Of a stretch of 64,000 nucleotides of DNA, positions 1 to 61,244 are shown in pieces. The translations under genes and the position numbers were made by a program. This stretch comes from a virus (lineage: Duplodnaviria > Heunggongvirae > Uroviricota > Caudoviricetes). The notes beneath the pieces were generated by a model. It was not told the DNA's origin. It ran no database searches and was given only the letters and a program-made list of their open reading frames with translations. The DNA is taken from the IMG/VR virus record IMGVR_UViG_3300010882_000009; one strand, written 5' to 3'. Within the stretch, counting starts at the first letter, position 1. Every line of letters begins with the position of its first letter.

Positions 1-2
1 CT

Positions 3-212
3 GCTATTGAACAGCTTGCAATAAAAGAGTATATTGATGAAAACGGTACAAGCCGGGGCGGTGAAAATAGAACTCCAGAAGCAATACTCATACGTAGGCT
101 TGCAATAATGACGCATTCATTACCACATATAGGCATAAGCAAGGAGGAATTTATAAATAGAGTAAATAATGTTATAAAATCTTATGTAAATATCAAAGGG
201 ATTGATTGTTAA
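3..212 (+). CDS. hypothetical protein, 3' part (gene starts upstream of window)
   Basis: open frame 3 from window edge to TAA at 210-212. Confidence 0.4.
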   Translation, partial: AIEQLAIKEYIDENGTSRGGENRTPEAILIRRLAIMTHSLPHIGISKEEFINRVNNVIKSYVNIKGIDC

Positions 213-257
213 CTAACTAGTATTTTATATATAGTTATTATATTATAGGGGGTAGTT

Positions 258-635
258 ATGACAGCTCATGATTTACATAAATATTGCTTAGAATCTGGCT
301 TAATAAAATCTTTAACACAAAAAATTAACATCATTGTTAATTTTGATATATCATGTAGAGGATTACAAGGAAAAGATTTAGCAGAAAAATTAGTAAGTAA
401 ATTCTTTAAAAAAGAAAATTTATCTTTTGATGGTTGGCATGTTGCAGAAATACCATTGACCGGGGAGCATGTGTGTATTTGCATTGAGAATTTGGAAACA
501 AAACAAGCTATAGCTCTTTATTTTAAGGAAGACGATTCATTAACCAATATTGCTGTAGGGCAATGTGATGAAGCTTATTGTGAAAGTATAAGAGACGCAA
601 TTAAACATCCAAAATCTTATTATAAAGATAGATAG
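258..635 (+). CDS. hypothetical protein (125 aa)
   Basis: track ORF; RBS tagggggt 8 nt upstream of ATG. Confidence 0.55.
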   Translation: MTAHDLHKYCLESGLIKSLTQKINIIVNFDISCRGLQGKDLAEKLVSKFFKKENLSFDGWHVAEIPLTGEHVCICIENLETKQAIALYFKEDDSLTNIAVGQCDEAYCESIRDAIKHPKSYYKDR

Positions 636-702
636 CTTTTTAGGAGGTTTGAAGCAGTTACGAAATAACGTAACAAACCGTAACAATATATGAAATTCAG
701 TC

Positions 703-731
703 TTGACATATATCTGTTTGTATGATATACT
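703..731 (+). promoter_or_regulatory. sigma70-like promoter TTGACA-17-TATACT upstream of tnpA
   Basis: TTGACA 703-708, 17-nt spacer, TATACT 726-731, ATG at 749. Confidence 0.45.
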
Positions 732-748
732 TAATGTGAGGTGATAAC

Positions 749-1414
749 ATGGATGCTATATTAAGTATACAAAAAGCAGGGAAAATGCTTGGCGTTACTC
801 CTAAAACTCTTAAGCTATGGGATGAACAAAATAAACTTAAACCATATTTTAAAACGTCAGGAGGGCATCGCAGATATAGGCTGTCTGATATTGATGAATT
901 TATTGGATGCAACATTATTATTAAACCAAGGGTTTTTATTTATTGTCGTGTATCTACTAAAAAACAAGAAGATGCTGGGAATCTTTTGCGGCAAGAACAA
1001 AGGCTTGTGTCGTACTGTCAAGATAAAGATTATGAAATAGTCTCTGTGTTCAAAGAAGTAGCATCTGGAATTAATGATAATCGCAGAGAATTAATAAAAA
1101 TGTTTAAAAGGCTATCTGATGCAGATAAAATTATTGTTGAATATAATGACCGTATAGCTAGATTTGGGTTTAATTATCTAAAAGAATTTGCAAATTCATA
1201 TAACGTTGAAATTGAAGCCATTGAAAATAATATTAAATTAGAACCAAATGAAGAAATGGTAAATGATTTGGTAAGTATTGTAACTTGCTTTAGTGCAAAG
1301 ATTTACGGGGTAAGAGGCGGAAAGAAAATCAAGAAAACTCTTGATGAACTTGAAATAAAAAGATTAGAGGGGAGTGATATCAGTGAAGATAACAGTAAAA
1401 TCAATGCTGATTAA
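749..1414 (+). CDS. tnpA: IS607-family transposase TnpA: MerR-like HTH plus serine recombinase (resolvase) catalytic domain
   Basis: N-term HTH LGVTPKTLKLWDEQNKLKP..GGHRRY; catalytic YCRVSTKKQ serine motif; RBS gtgaggtga. Confidence 0.85.
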   Translation: MDAILSIQKAGKMLGVTPKTLKLWDEQNKLKPYFKTSGGHRRYRLSDIDEFIGCNIIIKPRVFIYCRVSTKKQEDAGNLLRQEQRLVSYCQDKDYEIVSVFKEVASGINDNRRELIKMFKRLSDADKIIVEYNDRIARFGFNYLKEFANSYNVEIEAIENNIKLEPNEEMVNDLVSIVTCFSAKIYGVRGGKKIKKTLDELEIKRLEGSDISEDNSKINAD

Positions 1415-2849
1415 TGTTGATAATTCTTGTGACAATATATTATCTAGTATGATGTTAGTCTTCTGCTCTGCTATTAGATTCTCCTTTAAACGCTTGCTAG
1501 AAGATGTTAAAATTTGTGATCTAGAAAAAATAGTTGCTCTTAAATACAATCTAAATATTCGTCAAGCTAAAGATGCTGTAGAAAATGCTAGGCAAACTAT
1601 CGCTTCTCAAAAAGAATTGGTCAAACTCAACTACAAAAATTATACTGCTAAAATTATTACTATAGAAAATGCTTTGAAAAATAATAAATTGTCTGAGAAA
1701 AAACGTAAAGCATTATTGTCTAAGTTCGATAAACGTAAAAGAAAACAATTATATTACAAAAATTTTATTGATACTAATACCATCCCCTCAGTTATATTTG
1801 GAACTAAAGAATTATTCCTTAAACGATGCAAAGGTTTAATCTCAAAACAAGAATGGCAAAATGCTCGTAATAACAGGATTTATAGTAGAGGAGATAAAAC
1901 TAAATCTGGGAACCCTAATCTTAGAGTTATTGTAGATAATGATAGAAATACTTTTCTTGAAATATCTACGTTAGAAAAAACATCAACGAATAGAGCAGTA
2001 AAGATAAGAGTGCCATTATATCTTCCTCAAAAAGTCTCAAAGAAAACTGGTAAAATTAATGGCAGAGACTATAAAAATATGATTATTGATTATGTTAAAA
2101 CCGGAGAGGCTTATCAAGTAGAGTTGATTAAGAAAAACAGCAAATACTATTGCCATATTACTTTTGACGAAGCAAAGATAAGAGATATTACACCTATATA
2201 TACAGGACACAATGCTTTGCTAGGTGTCGATACTAATCCAGATGGATTCGGATTAACTCTTATAAGTAGAGATGGTAATTATAGCAAACATATTTATCTC
2301 AAACAATCCGAATTAAAATATGCACGTAGTAATCGTAGAACAAATTTATGTGGAGAGATATCTAAACAAGTTATAAATTTTGCTAAACAACATAATTGCG
2401 GAATTGCTATTGAAGATTTAAAGTTTGCTAATGATAAAGATGTTGGCAACAAATTCGCTAGAATAAAACATCAATTTATTTATAGTAAACTATTGCATAT
2501 GCTCGAATTATGTTGCAAACGAAATAATGTAGAGATAGTAAAGGTTAAGCCGCAGTTTACGTCTAAGATAGGATTATATAAATACTGCCATCAATATGGA
2601 ATGGATGTGCATAATGGAGCAGCAATGGTTATAGCACGGAGAGCTTATGGACTAAAAGAGAAAGTGCCAAAGTTGTTAAAATACATGTTTGTCAAAGATG
2701 ATAATATAAGTAAATTTAATCAAAAGAACGAGTGGAGCAAGTGGTCAGCGATTAACAAAGAAATACAAAAACAAATAAAAAATATAAAAATGAAGGGAGG
2801 TACTGGTTTCTGGCAACATGATAGGAAGATGATATTAGGACTGGTGTAA
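1383..2849 (+). CDS. tnpB: TnpB-like RuvC-fold protein (IS605 OrfB family), zinc finger degenerate
   Basis: RuvC-I LLGVDTNPDG, RuvC-II GIAIEDLKF, RuvC-III MDVHNGAAMVIARRA; overlaps tnpA 3' end; start uncertain (GTG 1374/1383 or ATG 1404); no CxxC..CxxC. Confidence 0.8.
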   Translation: MKITVKSMLINVDNSCDNILSSMMLVFCSAIRFSFKRLLEDVKICDLEKIVALKYNLNIRQAKDAVENARQTIASQKELVKLNYKNYTAKIITIENALKNNKLSEKKRKALLSKFDKRKRKQLYYKNFIDTNTIPSVIFGTKELFLKRCKGLISKQEWQNARNNRIYSRGDKTKSGNPNLRVIVDNDRNTFLEISTLEKTSTNRAVKIRVPLYLPQKVSKKTGKINGRDYKNMIIDYVKTGEAYQVELIKKNSKYYCHITFDEAKIRDITPIYTGHNALLGVDTNPDGFGLTLISRDGNYSKHIYLKQSELKYARSNRRTNLCGEISKQVINFAKQHNCGIAIEDLKFANDKDVGNKFARIKHQFIYSKLLHMLELCCKRNNVEIVKVKPQFTSKIGLYKYCHQYGMDVHNGAAMVIARRAYGLKEKVPKLLKYMFVKDDNISKFNQKNEWSKWSAINKEIQKQIKNIKMKGGTGFWQHDRKMILGLV

Positions 2850-3060
2850 CAACTGTTCTTTTAGATATAAGCTGCCAAAGTACACGCAGAGAAAGGCTTT
2901 GGCGGTAGGTATGAAAGAGGAATGGGTAACACCTGTAATCTTGTAGAACGTTATTATAATATATAGTAATGGCAATGCGAGATTTTAAGACAACTGTCTT
3001 AATCCTAGTAACTGAATCCTGTGACGTTACCGCTCTATTCATTGCTAATAGAGTGAAAAA
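2790..3060 (+). ncRNA. candidate omega-RNA / IS right-end region (speculative)
   Basis: GC-richer structured segment (GCCAAAG..CTTTGGC hairpin at about 2873-2903) overlapping tnpB 3' end and the 265-bp noncoding stretch before the next RBS-supported start at 3116. Confidence 0.25.
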
Positions 3061-3115
3061 TCATACAAACATATTGATGTTATGTTTTGTTACGATTTTA
3101 GAAACCAGGATTATT

Positions 3116-3499
3116 ATGAAAATTAAAATATTAGATAAAAATAATAGTGCAGTAAAATTTGCATTCTTTAGTGCAATAGGCAGTGAATATTATAAAATAG
3201 ATCAAATAACTGAAGCAGCATATAAAGAAGATGCAGCATATGGACGTGACTATGATATTATATTCACTGTAAATGGAGTAGAATTAAATTTTCAAAACTT
3301 TATTAATAGGCTATGTGATTCATATGATACACAAGTTGAAGATGCTGCAAAAAGATTGATTACAAATAAATTTGCAACATTAAATAATAGGCTTGACGAA
3401 TTAAGCAATAATTTAAATAATAATATTAATGAAATAAATTTAGATATTGATGATATGTTTAAAGCAATAAAAAAGAATGTTAGGAATATATTTGAATAG
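3116..3499 (+). CDS. hypothetical protein (127 aa)
   Basis: track ORF 2969-3499 trimmed to internal ATG with RBS aggatt; upstream 49 codons look like IS end, not coding. Confidence 0.5.
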   Translation: MKIKILDKNNSAVKFAFFSAIGSEYYKIDQITEAAYKEDAAYGRDYDIIFTVNGVELNFQNFINRLCDSYDTQVEDAAKRLITNKFATLNNRLDELSNNLNNNINEINLDIDDMFKAIKKNVRNIFE

Positions 3500-3541
3500 A
3501 ACTGATGTTTGATTCAAATATCTTATATGTAGGAGGGTAAT

Positions 3542-3748
3542 ATGTTAACAGATGAACGCAGAAGAATTATTATTGATGTTTTAAGTAGCAGCAAATATAT
3601 AGAAAGTAATACTCAATTACGTGGAGTTCTTGGAGTATTTTTGCATACAGATAAAGGATGGAGCGCAATAACAAATTCTGAAGTTACAGATGCAGAATTC
3701 AAAAATATATTTGAATTAAAAATTAATGAAATTTTATCAGATGCATAG
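3542..3748 (+). CDS. hypothetical protein (68 aa)
   Basis: RBS aggagggt. Confidence 0.55.
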   Translation: MLTDERRRIIIDVLSSSKYIESNTQLRGVLGVFLHTDKGWSAITNSEVTDAEFKNIFELKINEILSDA

Positions 3749-3778
3749 TATAATGACTATTTTATAGTTTAATATTTT

Positions 3779-3803
3779 AATCAAATTGTTATTCTATTAA
3801 AAT
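3779..3803 (+). promoter_or_regulatory. intergenic palindrome motif copy (variant left half AATCAAA)
   Basis: AATCAAA-ttgtta-TTCTATT-AAAAT. Confidence 0.6.
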
Positions 3804-3823
3804 ATATAATAATGAGGTGCAAA

Positions 3824-4231
3824 ATGTTTGATAGGTATAAATATAAAAATGGTTGGTTAATGCAGGTAACACTTGATTGCGCTTCAGAACTAGCCGGACA
3901 CCAAGGTATTATCTCTTCACGTTTTATAGAAGAAGATAAAGAAGATATTAATGATACTGATATATTCTATATTTTACGCTTTAACGGTAATACAACAGGG
4001 CTATACTCAGAAGGCCAACTTAATCTTATACAAGAAATGGATATAACCAAATCGCAGATGTTCTATCATTCATGCCAATGCGGTGGCGGGGAACTAGAAG
4101 ATGGAGGAAATTTCTATTCTTTTTTAGATATAGGAAGGAATAATAGTATTGAATGCATACATTGTAAAGAGTATATATTTCAAAATGAAGTTGAAATTCA
4201 GGCGGCTATTGATGCATATATAAATACATAA
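3824..4231 (+). CDS. hypothetical Cys-rich protein
   Basis: track ORF trimmed to ATG with RBS atgaggtg; CQCGGG..CIHC. Confidence 0.55.
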   Translation: MFDRYKYKNGWLMQVTLDCASELAGHQGIISSRFIEEDKEDINDTDIFYILRFNGNTTGLYSEGQLNLIQEMDITKSQMFYHSCQCGGGELEDGGNFYSFLDIGRNNSIECIHCKEYIFQNEVEIQAAIDAYINT

Positions 4232-4433
4232 AAAATGCGTATTCAGGAATTAACCAAATTGCAACGCAAATAGATGTTGCATAAAATATTCTACAATGTT
4301 ATAATAAAATCATGAGGTGATTATATGAAAGAATATATTAATCATAAAATTGGCGAACCAATAACAATGCCGGAATATTGCTTTCTCCAATAGAACAGTG
4401 GGAAGAAGGTTGTTATAATTATAAAAATGACTA

Positions 4434-4688
4434 TTGATTTATAAAATACATGTTAAAAGCAAATTTGAATCAAATGATGATTCTATTAAAATATTGAGAG
4501 GGTTGTATAATATGCATATTGGTATTGAAATAGAAATTATGCACTTTAAAAATGGGCCTGTAAAATATTATAGAGCTACATATAAAGATGATTGTACATC
4601 AATAAACTTTAAATGGACTACATGTAAACAAACTGCCATTAATGATATGTTAGATATTATTAATTCTGAAGTATATGACGAAGAATGA
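4434..4688 (+). CDS. hypothetical protein, start uncertain (TTG 4434 or ATG 4512)
   Basis: track ORF; no clear RBS at 4434; RBS gagggttg before ATG 4512. Confidence 0.35.
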   Translation: MIYKIHVKSKFESNDDSIKILRGLYNMHIGIEIEIMHFKNGPVKYYRATYKDDCTSINFKWTTCKQTAINDMLDIINSEVYDEE

Positions 4689-4699
4689 AAGGAAGCATA

Positions 4700-4984
4700 A
4701 TGAATATGAATAATGAATTAATTAGTGCATACGAACTTTTATGCCCACAAAACCATTTTTGTGAAGTAGCGCATTTATCAGTAGATTTATGGATAGTGGT
4801 ATGGACAGTTTTCTATATAGCATATATATATATGTTATATAAAGCAAAATTGGAATTTAATGGCAAAGTAATTAGCAGTATATTTGGTAGGGCTTTATTA
4901 TCATTAGCTCATGCAGGTATTCATACACTTATCATTTGCTTGCCATTATTGATAATACTACATTTTGTATTTGGGATTAGCTAA
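4700..4984 (+). CDS. small membrane protein (2 predicted TM)
   Basis: RBS aaaggaagc; hydrophobic helices. Confidence 0.5.
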   Translation: MNMNNELISAYELLCPQNHFCEVAHLSVDLWIVVWTVFYIAYIYMLYKAKLEFNGKVISSIFGRALLSLAHAGIHTLIICLPLLIILHFVFGIS

Positions 4985-4998
4985 ATTTGGAGGGCAAT

Positions 4999-5223
4999 AT
5001 GAAATTATATGTAGTATATCTTATTGATTATTCTGATAATAATTTTGAAACCCCTGTTGCCGGACAAGTAATAATGAAGTTTGCTGAGAATAGTCAAGAA
5101 GCAATTAAACTTGCTAGTAAAACAATTTGTTCGCATGGGAATTATTGTAAATATATTGCACAGAAAATTGAATTAAATAATATTATTGGTAACAATACTA
5201 TTTATATGGAAATAAAGTTTTAA
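4999..5223 (+). CDS. hypothetical protein
   Basis: RBS ttggaggg before ATG 4999. Confidence 0.5.
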   Translation: MKLYVVYLIDYSDNNFETPVAGQVIMKFAENSQEAIKLASKTICSHGNYCKYIAQKIELNNIIGNNTIYMEIKF

Positions 5224-5224
5224 A

Positions 5225-5266
5225 GCAAACTACCCACTACCATTAATGGTATCGGATTTCTCGCTT
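5225..5266 (-). repeat. structured repeat element copy C (reverse orientation)
   Basis: revcomp AAGCGAGAAATCCGATACCATTAATGGTAGTGGGTAG matches copies at 13868, 16592, 52585. Confidence 0.6.
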
Positions 5267-5289
5267 AACTTTAAAAAAGGAGTGTTAAT

Positions 5290-5706
5290 ATGGATTATAA
5301 AACAATATCAGATAATTACAAAAACTCTCATCCGCGGCTATATGTATTAGCTCATTGTGATACTAACCAGCAAAATACATTTATTCAAGATGCAAGAGAC
5401 AATGGGTATTTCGCAGAGCCAATAAGGGCAAATTGTTTTGAACTTAAATTAGATAACAGGAATATGATATTTGACTGTGATGGTAGTAAGGTTGATATAA
5501 ATGAATACGCATTTGGTAAAACACAATTTACAAAAATAACGCCAAGATTATCAATAACATCAATGTCTCCAGATGATGCAGCATATTACTATAATTGGTG
5601 TCCACTTGAGTGTATGTTAGACCATTCAAAGATTCCATTAAATAACATGCATGATGCTAGGATATACAGTAATGCTTGTATATATGATGATGCTAGTGTA
5701 TTTTAA
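5290..5706 (+). CDS. hypothetical protein (138 aa)
   Basis: RBS aaaaggagtg. Confidence 0.55.
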   Translation: MDYKTISDNYKNSHPRLYVLAHCDTNQQNTFIQDARDNGYFAEPIRANCFELKLDNRNMIFDCDGSKVDINEYAFGKTQFTKITPRLSITSMSPDDAAYYYNWCPLECMLDHSKIPLNNMHDARIYSNACIYDDASVF

Positions 5707-5729
5707 TAGAAGACAAATTCTATTAAAAT
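5705..5729 (+). promoter_or_regulatory. intergenic palindrome motif copy
   Basis: AATAGAA-gacaaa-TTCTATT-AAAAT. Confidence 0.65.
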
Positions 5730-5778
5730 TTATATACATACAATAAAAACAAAAATATTATTTAAAAGGATTGATTTT

Positions 5779-6360
5779 ATGAAAAAGTATAGTTTTACTG
5801 GTGATACTAAGATAGTAAATGGAATAACACTACAAAGAATTAAGGCGAATGTTGATTTTCATTATGTTAGTGTTGGAGACTTGGGTGGATGGATAGAAAA
5901 TGAATCGAATCTTTCAAATAATGTAAATAATAATGCTTGGGTGTCTAATGATGCCCAGGTATACGGTAATGCCCAGGTATCAGGTAATGCCCAGGTATAC
6001 GGTAATACCCAGGTATCAGGTAATGCCCAGGTATCAGGTAATGCCCAGGTATACGGTAATGCTAGGATATACGGTAATGCCCAGGTATACGGTAATGCTA
6101 GGATATATAGTGGAGAGTGGGAAGTATCACCATTATATATACAAGGAACAAAATGGGTGTTCTGTATGGTATCAAAAACTGAAATAAAAATTGGATGCCA
6201 AATTCATACAATAGATAAATGGAGAGAAAATTACAGAATAATAGCAAAGAGACACAACGCAGTTGACATTATTGAAGAATATGTAATGTATTTGAATGTT
6301 GCTATTGCAAGGTATGGACTTGGTGATGCTATTTTACTCGAAGATATTGCTGTAAATTAG
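5779..6360 (+). CDS. hexapeptide-repeat (beta-helix-like) protein, 9 x GNAQV[YS]
   Basis: period-6 aa repeat with aliphatic every 6th residue; RBS aaaaggattg. Confidence 0.6.
   Translation: MKKYSFTGDTKIVNGITLQRIKANVDFHYVSVGDLGGWIENESNLSNNVNNNAWVSNDAQVYGNAQVSGNAQVYGNTQVSGNAQVSGNAQVYGNARIYGNAQVYGNARIYSGEWEVSPLYIQGTKWVFCMVSKTEIKIGCQIHTIDKWRENYRIIAKRHNAVDIIEEYVMYLNVAIARYGLGDAILLEDIAVN
5947..6108. repeat. 9 tandem copies of 18-bp unit ggtaatgcccaggtatac (coding)
   Basis: near-identical units differing at 1-3 positions. Confidence 0.9.
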
Positions 6361-6366
6361 TATTTA

Positions 6367-6391
6367 AATAGAATACAGATTCTATTAAAAT
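6367..6391 (+). promoter_or_regulatory. intergenic palindrome motif copy
   Basis: AATAGAA-tacaga-TTCTATT-AAAAT. Confidence 0.65.
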
Positions 6392-22836: not shown

Positions 22837-24093
22837 ATGAAAAATAATACATATAGAATTACCAATAATGATATAAAAGGAATGGAAGTACTCGAAATTA
22901 GCTATAAAATATTCAATAATGATTGGACTACTCAATATGGGAACTATTGCTATGTAGATGAAAATGGTAATGTAGAAGGCTCTATTCATAAAGTTGATGG
23001 CGATATTAATGCTTGTAACTGGGGCCTACATTCAAGTAAAAACCCATTAGATTGCTTAAAATTCTATCCAATGGTTCAGTGGAATAAATATGCAATTGTA
23101 AAATCTTATGGCAAAGCAAAAGAACATTCAGATGGAGATAAAATAGTTTCGCAAATATTGAAAATTGATAAAGTTTTATCATGGAGCGAATTCCTTAACG
23201 AAATAAAAAATTATAATAATGGTAATACCGATATGCATGGCTCTGGCATTAGTGATGGCTCTGGCATTAGTGATGGCTATGGCATTAGGAATGGCTATGG
23301 CATTAGGAATGGCTATGGTATTAGGAATGGCTCTGGCATTAGGAATGGCTATGGTATTAGTGATGGCTATGGCATTAGGAATGGCTATGGTATTAGTGAT
23401 GGCTATGGCATTAGGAATGGCTATGGTATTAGTTATGGCTATGGCATTAGTGATGGCTATGGCATTAGGAATGGCTCTGGCATTAGTGATGGCTCTGGCA
23501 TTATGAATAGCTCTGGCATTAGGAATGGCTATGGCATTAGTGATGGCTATGGCATTAGTGATGGCTATGGTATTAGTTATGGCTATGGCATTAGTGATGG
23601 CTATGGCATTAGTTATGGCTATGGCATTAGTGATGGCTATGGCATTAGGAATGGCTCTGGCATTAGTGATGGCTATGGCATTAGGAATGGCTCTGGCATT
23701 AGTGATGGCTATGGCATTAATTATGGCTATGGCATAAACAATTCAAAATACTGTTATAAATGCGAAGGTATATCAAGATGTATAATGTGTTATGATTTTA
23801 CGGGGAAGTTATCTGTGTTTAATAAGCCTATAACAGAAACACGGTTTAATGAAATAAATAATACAATAGAAGAATTATCGGATGGCTGGTATCCTAAGTT
23901 TAATAATGCTTTTGATTTATATAGTCAAAACAATAGCAAATGGGAATCAACACCAGTAACGATGATAAAAGAAAAATCAATAAAAGAAGCATATACAGAT
24001 ATGCCGAAAGAATTAATTGAGTATATCAAGTCTATTAATGAATATGATGAAAATATATTTAATATAATTATTGGATTAAAGGATGGGGAATAA
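22837..24093 (+). CDS. tandem hexapeptide-repeat protein, 28 x G[YS]GI[SR][DN]
   Basis: period-6 aa, aliphatic every 6th residue; N-terminus resembles that of 5779-6360; RBS taaggaga. Confidence 0.6.
   Translation: MKNNTYRITNNDIKGMEVLEISYKIFNNDWTTQYGNYCYVDENGNVEGSIHKVDGDINACNWGLHSSKNPLDCLKFYPMVQWNKYAIVKSYGKAKEHSDGDKIVSQILKIDKVLSWSEFLNEIKNYNNGNTDMHGSGISDGSGISDGYGIRNGYGIRNGYGIRNGSGIRNGYGISDGYGIRNGYGISDGYGIRNGYGISYGYGISDGYGIRNGSGISDGSGIMNSSGIRNGYGISDGYGISDGYGISYGYGISDGYGISYGYGISDGYGIRNGSGISDGYGIRNGSGISDGYGINYGYGINNSKYCYKCEGISRCIMCYDFTGKLSVFNKPITETRFNEINNTIEELSDGWYPKFNNAFDLYSQNNSKWESTPVTMIKEKSIKEAYTDMPKELIEYIKSINEYDENIFNIIIGLKDGE
23239..23742. repeat. 28 tandem 18-bp units ggctatggcattagtgat (coding)
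   Basis: units differ only at 3 codon positions (tat/tct, agt/agg, gat/aat). Confidence 0.9.
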
Positions 24094-25604: not shown

Positions 25605-25859
25605 ATGACTGAAACAGAATATGCTAAAGAAACAAGTCGTGAAAAAATTATTGAACGCATGAAAGGTATAAATAAAGAATTGCTCGAAATTTTAGTAGAC
25701 ATTGCATTTGAAAATATTGATGGAAAACAGTTTGACTATGTAAATAGTTATCAACTAGCAGACGCTACAACAAGCATACATAATATTATATTAAATATTA
25801 ATCATATTGTATTTCAATGCGAAGATGATGACAACGAATATGATAGTAAGTTTGAATAG
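25605..25859 (+). CDS. hypothetical protein
   Basis: RBS taggaggc. Confidence 0.55.
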   Translation: MTETEYAKETSREKIIERMKGINKELLEILVDIAFENIDGKQFDYVNSYQLADATTSIHNIILNINHIVFQCEDDDNEYDSKFE

Positions 25860-25879
25860 AAAGTATATTCTATTAAAAT
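25855..25879 (+). promoter_or_regulatory. motif copy
   Basis: AATAGAA-agtata-TTCTATT-AAAAT; overlaps upstream stop. Confidence 0.65.
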
Positions 25880-40224: not shown

Positions 40225-40249
40225 AATAGAATTGAATTTCTATTCAAAT
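40225..40249 (+). promoter_or_regulatory. motif copy
   Basis: AATAGAA-ttgaat-TTCTATT-CAAAT. Confidence 0.6.
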
Positions 40250-47970: not shown

Positions 47971-47978
47971 AAAATTTG

Positions 47979-48003
47979 AATAGAAGACGCATTCTATTCA
48001 AAT
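47979..48003 (+). promoter_or_regulatory. motif copy
   Basis: AATAGAA-gacgca-TTCTATT-CAAAT. Confidence 0.6.
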
Positions 48004-48041
48004 TAAAAAATAAAAATATTATAATAAAAGGGGTTATTTAT

Positions 48042-48998
48042 ATGTATTTGTTTAAAAGTGGAATTATTTTAAAGGATAGAGTTTTTATACCAGACTACGA
48101 CAATTATGCAGATATGTTTAAAGAATTAAATATAGATGGCAATCCCGAAAATACTAAGCCTATTTTTGTACGTGTAGAACTTATTCCACAAGACAATAAT
48201 GTCTTTTCTGATATTGCTACATGGAGATTTAATGTTAACCAAGATATAGTGCCTGACTGGTTTGTTAAAGATTATGAAAAAGAACGCATGATCACTGCAG
48301 TAAAAGAATGGGCTAAATCCCGTATTTATATTGGTGTTGACGGATTAGAATTGTCAACAGGAGCTAATTATTATTTAAAAGATTGTAACGATATTATATT
48401 GACAGGCAATGTAAATATTGCAATGTTGAAAAGCTCAACTGTGCGTCTGATGTGTGATAGCACAATTGTAGAAAAGATGTGTGATAGCTCAACTGTAGGA
48501 GTGATGTGGGATAGCTCAAATATAAGAGAGATGTGTGATAGCTCAACTGTAAGAGAGATGTGGGATAGCTCAAATATAAGAGAGATGAATGATAGCTCAA
48601 TTGTAGAAAAGATGTGGGATAGCTCAACTGTAGGAGTGATGAGGCAAAGATCAATTGTAGAAAAGATGTTGCAAGGATCAACTGTTAGAGATATGAGAGA
48701 TAGCTCAACTGTGCGTCTGATGTGTGATAACTCAACCGTAGAAACGATGTGGGAAAGCTCAATTGTAGGAGTGATGAGTGGAAGTTCAAATATAAGAGAG
48801 ATGTGGGGTAGCTCGACTGTAAGAGAGATGAGAGATAGCTCAATTGTGTCAATACAAAATAATTTGTTCTCAAAAGGTATAAAACAAGATAGTATTATAC
48901 TGTGTGATAATGCTGTAATAAAAGACAGTCGTACAAAAACAATCTATCATAGCGGAGATTGGAAACTAGTTTTAATTGAGAATTCTGAAATTAGGTGA
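48042..48998 (+). CDS. tandem 9-aa-repeat protein (16 x DSSTVREMW-like)
   Basis: RBS aaaaggggtt; period-9 aa repeats. Confidence 0.6.
   Translation: MYLFKSGIILKDRVFIPDYDNYADMFKELNIDGNPENTKPIFVRVELIPQDNNVFSDIATWRFNVNQDIVPDWFVKDYEKERMITAVKEWAKSRIYIGVDGLELSTGANYYLKDCNDIILTGNVNIAMLKSSTVRLMCDSTIVEKMCDSSTVGVMWDSSNIREMCDSSTVREMWDSSNIREMNDSSIVEKMWDSSTVGVMRQRSIVEKMLQGSTVRDMRDSSTVRLMCDNSTVETMWESSIVGVMSGSSNIREMWGSSTVREMRDSSIVSIQNNLFSKGIKQDSIILCDNAVIKDSRTKTIYHSGDWKLVLIENSEIR
48425..48860. repeat. about 16 tandem 27-bp units (coding)
   Basis: unit tgtgatagctcaactgtaagagagatg with point variants. Confidence 0.85.
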
Positions 48999-57336: not shown

Positions 57337-58533
57337 ATGATTGATAAATATGCACAAGTACAAAATATATTAAAAGTGCTTGGTATAAATGCAATTGTAA
57401 TTGGAGATATACAAGGTCGTGTAACAACAACATACGAACTTCATATGGTAGACGGCGAAAAATCGGCAAAACTAAAAAGAGCTAAAGAAGATATACGTAT
57501 AAGGTTGAAAGCGGAAACTGTACAAATTGTGCAGATGGCTAATAATTCAATTGGAATAGAAGTTTCTAATAAATCTAATGAGATATTGAGAATTGGAGAT
57601 ATTATAAGATCTTCAGAATACAAAAGCTCAACAGCTCCGCTAAAGTTTGCAATTGGAGAAAGTCAATGCGGGGAAAAAATATATGGAAGCCTACCGGAGT
57701 TAAGAAACATATTAATCGCTGGGGCATCAGGTTCTGGCAAGTCTGTATTTATAAATGTATTAATATCAAGTTTAATAATGGAACCAGTAAAAGAATTACG
57801 GCTTGTATTATTAGACCCAAAGAAAGTGGAATTAACACCTTATGAAAATATTCCACATCTATTGGCCCCAGTTATAACAGATGAAAAAAAAGCAGAAATA
57901 ATGCTAGAATGGCTTTGCGAAGAAACAAATAGAAGATATGAATTATTAAATCAGATAGCAAAGCTAAATAATATTCCTATAAGAAATATAGATAGATACA
58001 ATGAGATATTAGAAAAGAATAATATGAATGACAAAAAGTTATATAGGATAGTAGTTATAATTGATGAATTATCTCAGCTTATAATGTCATCATCAAAAAA
58101 AGTAGAAGATGCAATAATTAAAATATCTCAGCTAAGTAGAGCTGCTGGGATTCATTTAATAGTAGCAACACAAAGACCATCTGCTGATATTATAACTTCC
58201 CGCATAAAAGATAACTTGCAGACTAAAATAGTATTTGCAGTAGATAAACCACAAAGTTCTATGGTTGCACTAGGTAGGACAGGTGCTGAATCATTACTTG
58301 GAAAGGGTGATATGCTATTTAAAAGAGAAAATGATATGAATCCTATGAGGATACAAGGGGCATATATCAGCGATGATGAAGTAGAAAGAGTAATTAATTA
58401 TTTCAGAAGTAAAAATATTTATCCTGTATTTGATAAAAGTATTATTGATGCACTGGAAGGAAAGCATGGGAATAATAGTAATGAGTTTCTAAGTAATATT
58501 TTTAGTGGATTAAGTAATAATGGTATATATTAG
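57337..58533 (+). CDS. FtsK/SpoIIIE-family DNA translocase ATPase (motor domain)
   Basis: Walker A GASGSGKS, Walker B VVIIDELSQL, ATQRPS, FtsK-like N-terminal beta-region; RBS aaaggcggg. Confidence 0.8.
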   Translation: MIDKYAQVQNILKVLGINAIVIGDIQGRVTTTYELHMVDGEKSAKLKRAKEDIRIRLKAETVQIVQMANNSIGIEVSNKSNEILRIGDIIRSSEYKSSTAPLKFAIGESQCGEKIYGSLPELRNILIAGASGSGKSVFINVLISSLIMEPVKELRLVLLDPKKVELTPYENIPHLLAPVITDEKKAEIMLEWLCEETNRRYELLNQIAKLNNIPIRNIDRYNEILEKNNMNDKKLYRIVVIIDELSQLIMSSSKKVEDAIIKISQLSRAAGIHLIVATQRPSADIITSRIKDNLQTKIVFAVDKPQSSMVALGRTGAESLLGKGDMLFKRENDMNPMRIQGAYISDDEVERVINYFRSKNIYPVFDKSIIDALEGKHGNNSNEFLSNIFSGLSNNGIY

Positions 58534-59053: not shown

Positions 59054-60109
59054 GTGGGTAAACAAGTTAGGACATTAATGTTTAACAGGAATTTGAAAGA
59101 AGAGTACATTGATTTTGAAAAAAAGGAAAGCAATAAAATTGCATTGGAAAACTATTTTAAACGACTATACGATGCAGAGGTTTCAACTGGCGATAATGGT
59201 ACAGATATAATATTTATGACTTACGATGAATTAAAAATAGCATTTTTATCACTAGGGATAAGACGAGATTTATCAATATCTCATTTTTTAGCATCAATGA
59301 GAGGATATGCATCGTGGGCTTTGTTAGTAAAGGGGATTACAAAAGACAAAAAGGCTTTTGACATAATGACTGTAGATGCATTAAAAGAAAAAAGCACAAT
59401 CACTAGTAAGATGCTAGGGGATTATGAACAGCTTAAAACTATTATTTTTAATGGACTTGATACAGTTAATTATCCTAATGCATCTATGCGAAATAGTTTA
59501 GTATTACATTTGGTTTTTGACGGGTTAACATTCAATGATATTGTAGATTTAAAAAAATCCGATCTTGATTTAAATACAAATTCAATAACGCTGGGGGGTG
59601 GATATATTGTAAAGTTATCTGACGAGACAGTTGATTTGTGGCTTAGATTTCAAGATGTTGATGGAATAGAAAAGAAAAATGCACAGGCGGAAAGATCAAC
59701 AAAATCAACAACAGAAGAATATATAATGATTCCTCTAATAGATAACGACTACTTAATACGACCACAATTAAGGCAAAATGCAAGAACACAGCAAACACAG
59801 ATTCCGTTATCTTCATTAAATCGTATTATACGTGTTATATATAAGACTTCAAAATCAAGCGAACAGCTATCTCCTTCTACTGTTCGCATATCAGGTGTAT
59901 TTCATAGATTATATCAGTGTGAGCTAAAAGGAGAAATAAATGGTGTAAAAATTACATCTGATATTGATAATTATGAATATGAAATTGCAAAATATCTTGC
60001 ATATCATCTTCGTGTTGAGTATAATGACAAAGGAGAGTTGATGTTAAAATTATTGAGATGGAGGAAAGATTATAGCGATTGGAAGTATGCATTTGGTTAC
60101 ACATCTTAA
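59054..60109 (+). CDS. divergent tyrosine-recombinase-like protein (GTG start), call tentative
   Basis: candidate box I R in SMRNSLVLHLVFDGLTFNDIVDLKKSDLDL, K in GYIVKLSDE, box II-like STVRISGVFHRLY, C-terminal Tyr candidates; RBS aaaggatggtg. Confidence 0.4.
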   Translation: MGKQVRTLMFNRNLKEEYIDFEKKESNKIALENYFKRLYDAEVSTGDNGTDIIFMTYDELKIAFLSLGIRRDLSISHFLASMRGYASWALLVKGITKDKKAFDIMTVDALKEKSTITSKMLGDYEQLKTIIFNGLDTVNYPNASMRNSLVLHLVFDGLTFNDIVDLKKSDLDLNTNSITLGGGYIVKLSDETVDLWLRFQDVDGIEKKNAQAERSTKSTTEEYIMIPLIDNDYLIRPQLRQNARTQQTQIPLSSLNRIIRVIYKTSKSSEQLSPSTVRISGVFHRLYQCELKGEINGVKITSDIDNYEYEIAKYLAYHLRVEYNDKGELMLKLLRWRKDYSDWKYAFGYTS

Positions 60110-60143: not shown

Positions 60144-61244
60144 ATGCCAGCAGCAAGAACAAAAGCAAAAGCAAAAGAAAAATCAAATATGATAGTGCCC
60201 GAGCATGTTGTAAAGCCAGTATATGTAGTAATAGAACCTGAGTCAAGCAAGGTTGATATGAGTGTATCAAGTGTTGCAAACAAATTTAAAAACAGAACTA
60301 TTATTACAGATATTTTAGAACAACGTGGTGATGTTTGGCATCCTATTGTTAAAGGAATGTTTATTCGCGCCTTAATAAGAGGTGTCCAAATACCACCATT
60401 GTACTTCAACAAAGCTGAAAAGACTAGCGAAGCGTTAGACGGACAGCAGAGGATTAGAACAATCTCAGGATTTATTCATGGAGAATTTTCTATCCATAAA
60501 GATGTTCCACCTATACGTGTAGAAAAAGATGGAGTTGCTGAAGATTTTGTAATAGCACGACTATATTTTAAAGACTTACCTACTGATATACAGGATAAGT
60601 TAAAATCAACTGTATTATTATCTTTTACATTTTTTAATATGACACATGAAGAGAAGGTTAATTTTTTCATTGAAATAAATAGCAACAAACCTATATCCCC
60701 TGCTGACTTTTCCCGTATAAGAATATGCAGTAGACATATATTCATTAAACTTGCAAAACTTCCGGGGATAGCCAGTGTATTAAAGGATAGTAAGAAAAAG
60801 AAGTTGGAAGACGAAGATATTCCGGCAGATGCAGCAATAATGGCATACGCTAGTAACCATTCATTGATGAACGATAAAAACGGAAGACATATTCTTTGGA
60901 CGCAAGAAATAACTCCTGAGCAGGAAGAAGAAATGACAAAAGCACTTGACTATATGAAGACATTCTTTGTTATTATGGCAGACATGAAAAAAATGTCTAA
61001 TAAAATAAAGAATAGAAAAACGCACATGGTTTCATTAATGTACATGGCTATAATTGCTATTCAGAGATGTATAAGCGCAGAAGACTTCGCAGAGAGGGTT
61101 AAAGGATTTTTTAATACAAATGATGACCGGGCAAGTCACGATGAAGGATACAACAATGCATGTTCAGCGGCAAGCGCAAAATTATTAAGCGTATCTATAC
61201 GCAGAGATATATTGCGAAATGTAATTTATAGAGATATTGGATAA
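60144..61244 (+). CDS. DUF262 (ParB/Srx-fold) protein with DGQQR motif
   Basis: EQRGDVWHP...LDGQQRIRTISGF; RBS gaagggagatg. Confidence 0.6.
   Translation: MPAARTKAKAKEKSNMIVPEHVVKPVYVVIEPESSKVDMSVSSVANKFKNRTIITDILEQRGDVWHPIVKGMFIRALIRGVQIPPLYFNKAEKTSEALDGQQRIRTISGFIHGEFSIHKDVPPIRVEKDGVAEDFVIARLYFKDLPTDIQDKLKSTVLLSFTFFNMTHEEKVNFFIEINSNKPISPADFSRIRICSRHIFIKLAKLPGIASVLKDSKKKKLEDEDIPADAAIMAYASNHSLMNDKNGRHILWTQEITPEQEEEMTKALDYMKTFFVIMADMKKMSNKIKNRKTHMVSLMYMAIIAIQRCISAEDFAERVKGFFNTNDDRASHDEGYNNACSAASAKLLSVSIRRDILRNVIYRDIG

Follow-up and report, generated by a model that had tools for sequence, protein, structure and literature searches.

An intact IS607-family insertion sequence with a zinc-fingerless TnpB in a Shine-Dalgarno site of phage- or plasmid-like DNA

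Are two overlapping transposon-type genes near the left end of a viral DNA record part of a mobile element, or have they been taken over by their host as a resident RNA-guided nuclease? The question is raised by a 64,000-nucleotide (nt) stretch of IMG/VR virus record IMGVR_UViG_3300010882_000009 (Caudoviricetes), which we refer to as the window. Positions 648–3109 (+ strand, as are all features below unless noted) are a complete, intact and autonomous insertion sequence (IS) of the IS607 family, 2462 bp in length with the right-hand GG counted in, and the surrounding DNA is phage- or plasmid-like and comes from an AT-rich Firmicute. The element contains tnpA, an overlapping tnpB and a conserved 260-nt non-coding tail, after which the next gene follows. 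The best overall explanation, in which we have considerable confidence, is an autonomous IS607 element seated in a Shine-Dalgarno (SD) site, with proposed homing by TnpB and its guide RNA, the ωRNA.

The element, its ends and its target

The tnpA gene (749–1414) codes for a 221-aa IS607-type serine transposase with the motif YCRVSTKKQ, in which Pfam places a MerR helix-turn-helix (HTH) at residues 6–43 and a Resolvase domain at 62–187; it scores 175.6 bits against the NCBIfam equivalog NF033518 'IS607 family transposase' (cutoff 110) and matches phrog_6620 'transposase' with E = 4.7e-49. The co-oriented tnpB gene lies downstream and overlaps tnpA by 32 nt. Its open reading frame (ORF) spans 1374/1383–2849, and since homologues begin MKITIKA..., the GTG at 1383 is the true start, giving a 488-aa product; identical public contigs have the same 221-aa and 488-aa genes called, the latter with Pfam PF27229 (SSO2105_N). 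Within the left end (648–748) there is a putative sigma-70-type promoter, TTGACA-17-TATACT (703–731), which agrees with the consensus at 11 of 12 positions and is extended by a TG, and homologous left ends have a -10-like hexamer at the same place. No intrinsic terminator is predicted within 500–3300, and with this near-consensus promoter read-through into the downstream gene is plausible. The original prediction, made from the sequence alone, had described an IS607-family tnpA-tnpB element with a MerR HTH fused to a serine-recombinase core, an overlapping tnpB at 1383–2849 and a promoter of its own, and in all of these respects it stands.

Both ends of the element are placed by family-wide conservation. 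In a 3'-flank alignment of 43 homologous loci, conservation is lost sharply after ...TTTAGAAAYCAGG, a motif that occurs once in the window and ends at 3109, and the sequences beyond are unrelated. At the left end relatives share the consensus GGAGG|TAACAACAGYTG, and the window counterpart is GGAGG (643–647)|TTTGAAGCAG. The logo of 37 family junctions reads G33 (-5), G32 (-4), A30 (-3), G37 and G37, with nothing but A/T richness farther out; two C. arbusti copies whose left ends are nearly the same are preceded by GGAGG and GGGGG, respectively, which assigns the three bases upstream of the GG to the target and not to the element. The crossover dinucleotide GG is present at both junctions (646–647 and 3108–3109) and is invariant in the listed right ends of 45 relatives and in the 37 left junctions, where its invariance means less in that the left-end search pattern itself demanded GG. 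Right ends across the family read [T/C/G]CAGG; that of the window is CCAGG, which differs from GGAGG at -4 and -5.

Imperfect AT-rich inverted repeats lie just inside the ends, 664–685 with 3078–3099 (82% complementary) and 706–726 with 3060–3080 (86%). The repeats near both ends are rich in GTAAC/TGTTAC, homologous left ends have equivalents of the ATAACA repeats, and the GTAAC/ATAACA repeats at about 657–686 are probable TnpA binding sites. In one sub-lineage (L007, L008, L017, L019, L021 and L045) TTTAGAAAYCAGG is replaced by the right end TTTAGG(T/G)AGCAGG, and the last helix of the tail, H9 as described below, is shortened.

A scan of one genome per species gave 80 loci, mostly in Clostridia, and several genomes are multi-copy, including those of Desnuesiella, Oceanirhabdus, C. 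arbusti, C. tanneri and C. tepidiprofundi, the last with eight copies that are mostly at contig ends. Copies within a genome have unrelated flanks. Full-length tnpA is upstream of tnpB at 11 loci, and many others have fragments or none, in keeping with the decay series usual for IS607/IS1341 elements. The close family is all but missing from IMG/VR, where just three distant loci are present.

The window element is located between a GGAGG SD sequence and the ATG of gene 3116–3499, a geometry common to 84% of 45 related elements: in 38 of the 45 a co-oriented start codon, required to open an ORF of at least 50 codons, is positioned 4–13 nt (mode 7) past the right end. By the same test in the same flanks, start codons follow 14% of GG sites and 34% of GGAGG sites (binomial p = 8e-26 and 3e-12, respectively). 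Because the left ends abut GGAGG and start codons lie 4–13 nt beyond the right ends, the family inserts into SD sites, and from these sequences GGAGG is likely to be the target-adjacent motif (TAM) of this TnpB family. Precise excision from the window would restore TAGGAGG-ATTATT-ATG (AGGAGG-N6-ATG) for gene 3116–3499; the present junction reads ACCAGG-ATTATT-ATG, in which AGGA remains as a weak SD. Two features may be new at the level of the family, the SD targeting and the 9-helix ωRNA candidate, and a search of the accessible literature turned up no description of SD targeting or of a GGAGG TAM for IS607/TnpB. We note that in Oceanirhabdus sp. W0125-5 the gene that starts 7 nt past the right end of the element (L014, 4676–5310) is an IS607-type tnpA, 34% identical to the window TnpA, and one IS607 element is therefore inserted in the ribosome-binding site of another.

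The right boundary also places the predicted guide. In the field the guide is taken to start where conservation last falls off sharply in the downstream direction (Nety et al. 2023, PMC10278001), and with that fall at 3109 it is predicted to start at 3110 (ATTATTATGAAAATTAAAAT; 3110–3129, length assumed), as the scaffold/flank boundary and the TnpB paradigm would have it. It would then consist of the spacer and the first codons of the downstream gene, start codon included.

The zinc-fingerless TnpB and a proposed homing cycle

TnpB passes the domain model TIGR01766 narrowly (32.2 bits, cutoff 32) and also matches the N-terminal model TIGR01765; just the first 30 positions of the Pfam Cas12f1-like TNB model are matched, and PHROGs contains no family for it. 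Relatives are numerous, with at least 552 clusters in a word-indexed search (the closest at about 60–69% identity, about 480 aa, mostly Clostridia) and 1645 clusters at 50% identity with E ≤ 1e-3 in an exhaustive one. The family profile finds Cas12f/TnpB-related chains in the PDB at E ~1e-9, with alignments that end at 'YTS' just before the zinc finger. An AlphaFold2 model (predicted local distance difference test, pLDDT, 82) has an order of secondary structure consistent with WED-REC-WED-RuvC, and Foldseek with this model returns Cas12k, Cas12f, ISFba1 TnpB and ISDra2 TnpB at probability 1.0; as modelled, the tnpB product has a TnpB/Cas12 fold.

In an alignment of 33 relatives (23–59% identity; residues numbered from the GTG start), D283 (GVDTN), E344 (IAIEDL), H410, K400 and R419/R420 are invariant or nearly so, whereas Asp408 in 'DVHNGAAMVIARRA' ('MDVHNGAA') varies among D/V/Y/G/I/N/E/L/A. 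The RuvC regions were compared by global alignment with ISDra2 TnpB, the reference sequence of which is 100% identical to PDB 8BF8_A; hhalign of the family profile against this single sequence had aligned RuvC-I alone, at low probability. D283 corresponds to ISDra2 D191 and E344 to E278, and DVHNGAAMVIARR aligns to DRDENAALNIRRE, which places H410 on the catalytic D361. Because His410 is invariant and aligned to D361 while Asp408 is variable, the RuvC triad is D-E-H and not the canonical D-E-D. Three RuvC motifs had been predicted, and the first two hold; in the third the Asp is variable and it is the neighbouring His that is conserved.

The absence of a canonical zinc finger, also predicted, is borne out. 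KYCHQYG aligns to QLCHDCG, the first zinc knuckle of ISDra2, and is followed by a 22-aa gap in which the zinc ribbon and the second CxxC are gone, leaving CHQY (CHDC in ISDra2) as a remnant; none of the aligned relatives has a CxxC...CxxC zinc finger. As in ISDra2 TnpB (PDB 8BF8, 8EXA, 8H1J), the predicted fold is of TnpB/Cas12 type and the AAxxI.RR helix of RuvC-III aligns. ISDra2 differs in lacking both the long helical N-terminal insertion (Pfam SSO2105_N) and the conserved C-terminal extension of about 70 aa, in its Y1 rather than serine transposase, and in its TTGAT TAM where the one predicted here is G-rich. The extension (residues ~420–488, nt 2640–2846) is helical, with family-invariant W451, W454 and R481 (NEWSKW...NRKxxLG), and may compensate for the absent zinc-finger/TNB domain.

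Histidine for aspartate in RuvC-III and loss of the C4 zinc finger are the published signature of RIIIr-4, one of five major TnpB clades, which according to its description (Altae-Tran et al. 2023, PNAS, PMC10691335) is over-represented in viruses and for which a retained catalytic function is inferred. The window TnpB has both traits, so the loss of its zinc finger is shared with a known clade rather than peculiar to this copy. These two traits, together with weak homology, suggest membership: TnpB is 21% identical to orthologue 39 of Nocardiopsis dassonvillei, the sole RIIIr-4 member assayed (pairwise BLASTP E = 6e-4, weak but colinear over WED, RuvC-I and RuvC-II), and 28% identical (E = 1e-45) to a His-type representative that has no clade label in the tree file of PMC10278001. 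A match to 'RIII' in File S3 of that paper was rejected as a clade label, being the amino-acid string CRIIIS. As in RIIIr-4 generally, the protein is larger than typical TnpBs and is found with a serine recombinase and in a virus; SD targeting and the present ωRNA architecture are not mentioned in the published description.

The closest functional parallel comes from other serine-transposase elements. The C. botulinum IStron (TnpA_S, TnpB and ωRNA) has a GG crossover, a scarless donor joint and a TAM that equals the TnpA target, and it avoids itself by a right end one base off the TAM, TGGG vs TCGG (Žedaveinytė et al., bioRxiv 10.1101/2023.11.20.567912). With CboIStron and H. pylori IS607 the window element shares a MerR-HTH serine transposase, an overlapping tnpB, the GG crossover and AT-rich imperfect subterminal inverted repeats, with no evidence of target duplication. 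It further shares a structured RNA that ends at the right end with a guide in the flank, a GG-ending target that doubles as predicted TAM, and a right end one to two bases off that TAM (GGAGG vs CCAGG). It differs in its zinc-fingerless TnpB with His in RuvC-III, its longer ωRNA candidate (about 240 nt, wholly 3' of the stop codon and of no Rfam family) and its target, the 5-nt SD GGAGG rather than TGGG. A reading as an IStron was rejected: Rfam finds no group I intron (E up to 1, 1–6000), and the left end is only about 100 bp.

ISCaje4 of Campylobacter phage CP220 (L086, 972–2691), annotated as IS200/IS605-family, is a distant relative (27% identity over 59% of the query) that is also phage-borne, with a resolvase-type tnpA remnant and a TnpB without a zinc finger. 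Its annotated right end stops 5 nt short of the start codon (ATG) of an exonuclease gene, a GG lies six bases upstream of that ATG, and placement before start codons may therefore extend past the Clostridial subfamily. Unlike the window element, ISCaje4 has no aligned His in RuvC-III, its left flank is not GGAGG, and it is 1.7 kb long with a truncated tnpA.

The biochemistry that we propose is modelled on the IS607/CboIStron and ISDra2 paradigms, onto which the computed anatomy would map. TnpA would excise the element as a double-stranded DNA (dsDNA) circle and re-seal the donor by crossover at GG, giving the joint ...AGGAGG|ATTATTATG, and would integrate the circle at GGAGG sites; because these are mostly ribosome-binding sites in Firmicutes, coding sequence would stay intact, and the right end (..CAGG) would provide a weak SD with the spacing unchanged. 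Transcription that starts at the element promoter and runs through tnpA, tnpB and the tail would yield an ωRNA with a flank-derived 3' guide. TnpB-ωRNA would then recognise the emptied site (5'-GGAGG + ATTATTATGAAAAT...) and cut or bind it, and recombination with a filled copy would restore the element, the filled site being spared because its junction reads CCAGG. Cleavage of dsDNA by the D-E-H site is the weakest step of this scheme.

Several observations weigh against our overall explanation. No empty site was found with a joined-flank pattern in viral contigs or with two patterns in metagenome contigs, all contigs with exact matches to the flanking proteins carry the IS, and a homologue search with the downstream protein for an IS-free locus returned that protein alone; the insertion at this locus is accordingly read from the family-wide boundaries. 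A comparison with relatives, as proposed at the outset, has in this way supplied the ends and the TAM candidate, but no insertion-free version of the locus. TnpB scores 46.5 bits against NF040570 'RNA-guided endonuclease TnpB', below the cutoff of 100, and its best match apart from identical contigs is at 69% identity, with no close sister copy; its matches to TnpB models are weak. The 5' end of the ωRNA, the length of the guide and the TAM are predictions, and the excess of SD sites could arise from extra sequence preference or from selection against intragenic insertions, the data fitting either. Finally, orthologue 39, which has a 466-nt scaffold and no adjacent transposase, processed its ωRNA and was inactive in a dsDNA TAM screen (PMC10278001).

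This last result bears on the alternative that survives best, although we think it unlikely: the element is the same, but its D-E-H, zinc-fingerless TnpB does something other than homing by dsDNA cleavage. TnpB could bind or regulate targets under RNA guidance, as the nuclease-dead TldR proteins do, could act on single-stranded DNA or RNA, or could process its own RNA and nothing else, and would then influence either the control of transposition or the expression of the SD-proximal gene. Replacement of the catalytic RuvC-III Asp by His throughout the clade speaks for such a role, as does a guide that covers the translation-initiation region. Some RuvC resolvases, such as that of Thermus, have a His in the active site. 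Conservation of D283, E344 and H410 at or near invariance down to 23% identity argues that catalysis is retained, and PMC10691335 infers likewise. The assayed orthologue gave processed ωRNA and no dsDNA TAM signal, and PMC10278001 proposes that such TnpBs may act on other substrates; that orthologue is, however, 21% identical to the window TnpB, and a negative result from in vitro transcription-translation (IVTT) is weak evidence. The family is moreover mobile and multi-copy, as are nuclease-active TnpB elements, and the window copy keeps the transposon ends and transposase that known TldRs have both lost.

A covarying RNA structure in the tail

The homing reading requires an ωRNA, and a GC-richer, hairpin-rich tail in which one might be found was part of the original prediction. 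The 260 nt between tnpB and the right boundary contain no credible ORF; the GC content of 2850–3109 is 35.4% compared with 28.8% for the window, and 2860–3129 folds with a minimum free energy (MFE) of -69.5 kcal/mol (z = -4.4). From an alignment of 31 tails RNAalifold derives 52 pairs in 8 helices, with compensatory changes in 38 of the pairs, and with one helix added by eye there are 60 pairs in 9 helices, 45 with compensatory (double) changes. In the 9-helix model 94.8% of cells are paired, as against 37–46% with partners slid by 1–3 columns, and none of 500 column shuffles is as good. The structure belongs to the tnpB-sense (+) transcript because its many G-U pairs would turn into A-C in the complementary strand.

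The helices are H1 (2872–2905), H2 (2919–2921/3003–3005) enclosing H3 (2922–2936), H4 (2938–2944/2977–2983), H5 (2949–2971) and H6 (2985–3002), and then H7 (3008–3030), H8 (3031–3055) and H9 (3057–3099). They end 10 nt before the conservation boundary at 3109, and the single-stranded AGAAACCAGG (3100–3109) lies 3' of H9. Judged by its sequence and covariation, the tail is a candidate ωRNA scaffold (2872–3109), about 240 nt long, whose 3' end coincides exactly with the right boundary of the transposon, much as the original prediction had envisaged.

Some tails have loop insertions of 50–110 nt with the helices kept, as in L022 (about 70 nt in H8) and L021 (after H5 and in H7). In Logan assembly SRR10512951 two contigs (L083 and L085) break in the most conserved part of the ωRNA candidate, the GAATCCTGTGA region (window 3002–3031), with an overlap of about 30 nt; such a break would be expected of a de Bruijn graph if other copies of the IS family are present in that sample.

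Rfam 15 yields no match for the tail beyond chance level, either with default filters over 6 kb (1–6000) or with permissive filters over 551 nt (2650–3200), and the search for a known guide-RNA family that had been suggested is thus negative. A RAGATH-18-derived RNA (reRNA) was rejected, with no Rfam match at E up to 10 in 2650–3200 bar one chance-level match on the opposite strand, and the IS605-orfB motif likewise has no Rfam match in the tail. Two ORFs, 2752–3042 (- strand) and 2969–3115 (+ strand, an extension), were discarded as genes; both overlie the covarying RNA and are uncalled on identical contigs.

It is very unlikely that the 260-nt tail is instead a long right end that acts as DNA, an array of TnpA sites and not a guide RNA. 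Multiple TnpA-binding repeats are known in IS607 ends, and 3060–3099 does contain GTAAC/TGTTAC motifs and the partners of the left-end inverted repeats. The covariation that preserves pairing nevertheless extends over nine helices (2872–3099), far past the terminal repeats, with three quarters of the pairs compensated, and pairing collapses on sliding; the frequent G-U pairs hold for one strand only, the opposite one having A-C mismatches, and the left end suffices with about 100 bp. Serine recombinases work on duplex DNA and do not require hairpins.

The host locus and the meaning of the element

Small + strand ORFs follow one another along the window, and many of the gaps between them contain a palindrome, ATAGAA-N6-TTCTAT, usually within TTTAAATAGAA-N6-TTCTATTAAAAT. 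There are 35 copies in the window, where 1.1 are expected, from 5706 to 63206 (e.g. 6368–6385, 25856–25873 and 40226–40243); those checked are just upstream of ORF starts, and the palindrome resembles a promoter/operator signal belonging to the host phage or plasmid. As the original prediction had noted, it is absent from the element, with no copy inside 648–3109, and this absence points to a foreign origin.

That the two ORFs are domesticated, fixed phage or plasmid genes that are no longer mobile, as had been suggested for an RNA-guided nuclease, is the least probable of the readings and is not supported: the element is present in all of the four or five public contigs with the flanking genes and no empty site was found, but these contigs are near-identical copies of one genome and their agreement says little, whereas the transposase is full-length, the ends and GG match the family consensus, the target is the standard SD, the host palindrome is missing, relatives are multi-copy with unrelated flanks, and no relative of the flanking genes has the pair as conserved neighbours.

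The only related phage locus found, on a 152-kb IMG/VR contig (L081), encodes a distant homologue of the downstream protein and has no adjacent IS. In the window the downstream gene (3116–3499) codes for a 127-aa protein of unknown function and is called on identical contigs; a mechanically derived ORF of 176 aa (2969–3499) is spurious, being its upstream extension into the right end of the transposon, and start codons adjoining such elements are easily mis-called by automatic annotation. An identical TnpB is present on a 225-kb JGI contig. A phage collection contained no near-identical DNA, and an exact-protein look-up gave no record for protein P0001.

Elsewhere in the window, an FtsK/SpoIIIE-like ATPase (57337–58533; phrog_1358, E = 2e-77), a tyrosine-integrase-like protein (59054–60109; phrog_5830) and a conserved protein of unknown function (60144–61244) are encoded side by side, which hints that the 225-kb source is an integrative/conjugative element or phage-plasmid rather than a classical phage. 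In-frame tandem repeats are present at 23129–23843 (period 18 nt, 27 overlapping copies, inside ORF 22837–24093), at 48369–48901 (period 27 nt, 13 copies, inside ORF 47976–48998) and near 6 kb at 5913–6114 (period 18 nt, 8 copies), and suggest repeat-containing structural or surface proteins.

The element is an ordinary IS607 copy of a catalogued and biochemically unproven TnpB clade, probably RIIIr-4, of which it offers a clean and intact exemplar, with transposase, TnpB, full ωRNA candidate, exact ends, and predicted TAM and guide. The GGAGG TAM candidate and the exact scaffold/guide boundary may explain why the heterologous screen of a distant orthologue failed. Insertion between SD and start codon in 84% of cases would amount to a 'safe-harbour' strategy, comparable in its logic to IStron splicing, and bears on operon expression, on competition between phages and on the annotation of start codons.

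We also raise, as a tentative proposal that may well prove wrong, that this is a ribosome-binding-site homing transposon, in which the serine transposase and TnpB-ωRNA both read GGAGG, the one as target and the other as TAM, the guide is always a translation-initiation region, and the right end re-creates a weak SD; our literature search found no description of such an element. If this is so, the element would ride in operons at little cost, and on a phage an RNA-guided gene drive against IS-free co-infecting genomes could result. Should the D-E-H site be active, the family would further provide a compact, zinc-independent nuclease that uses a G-rich 5-nt TAM.

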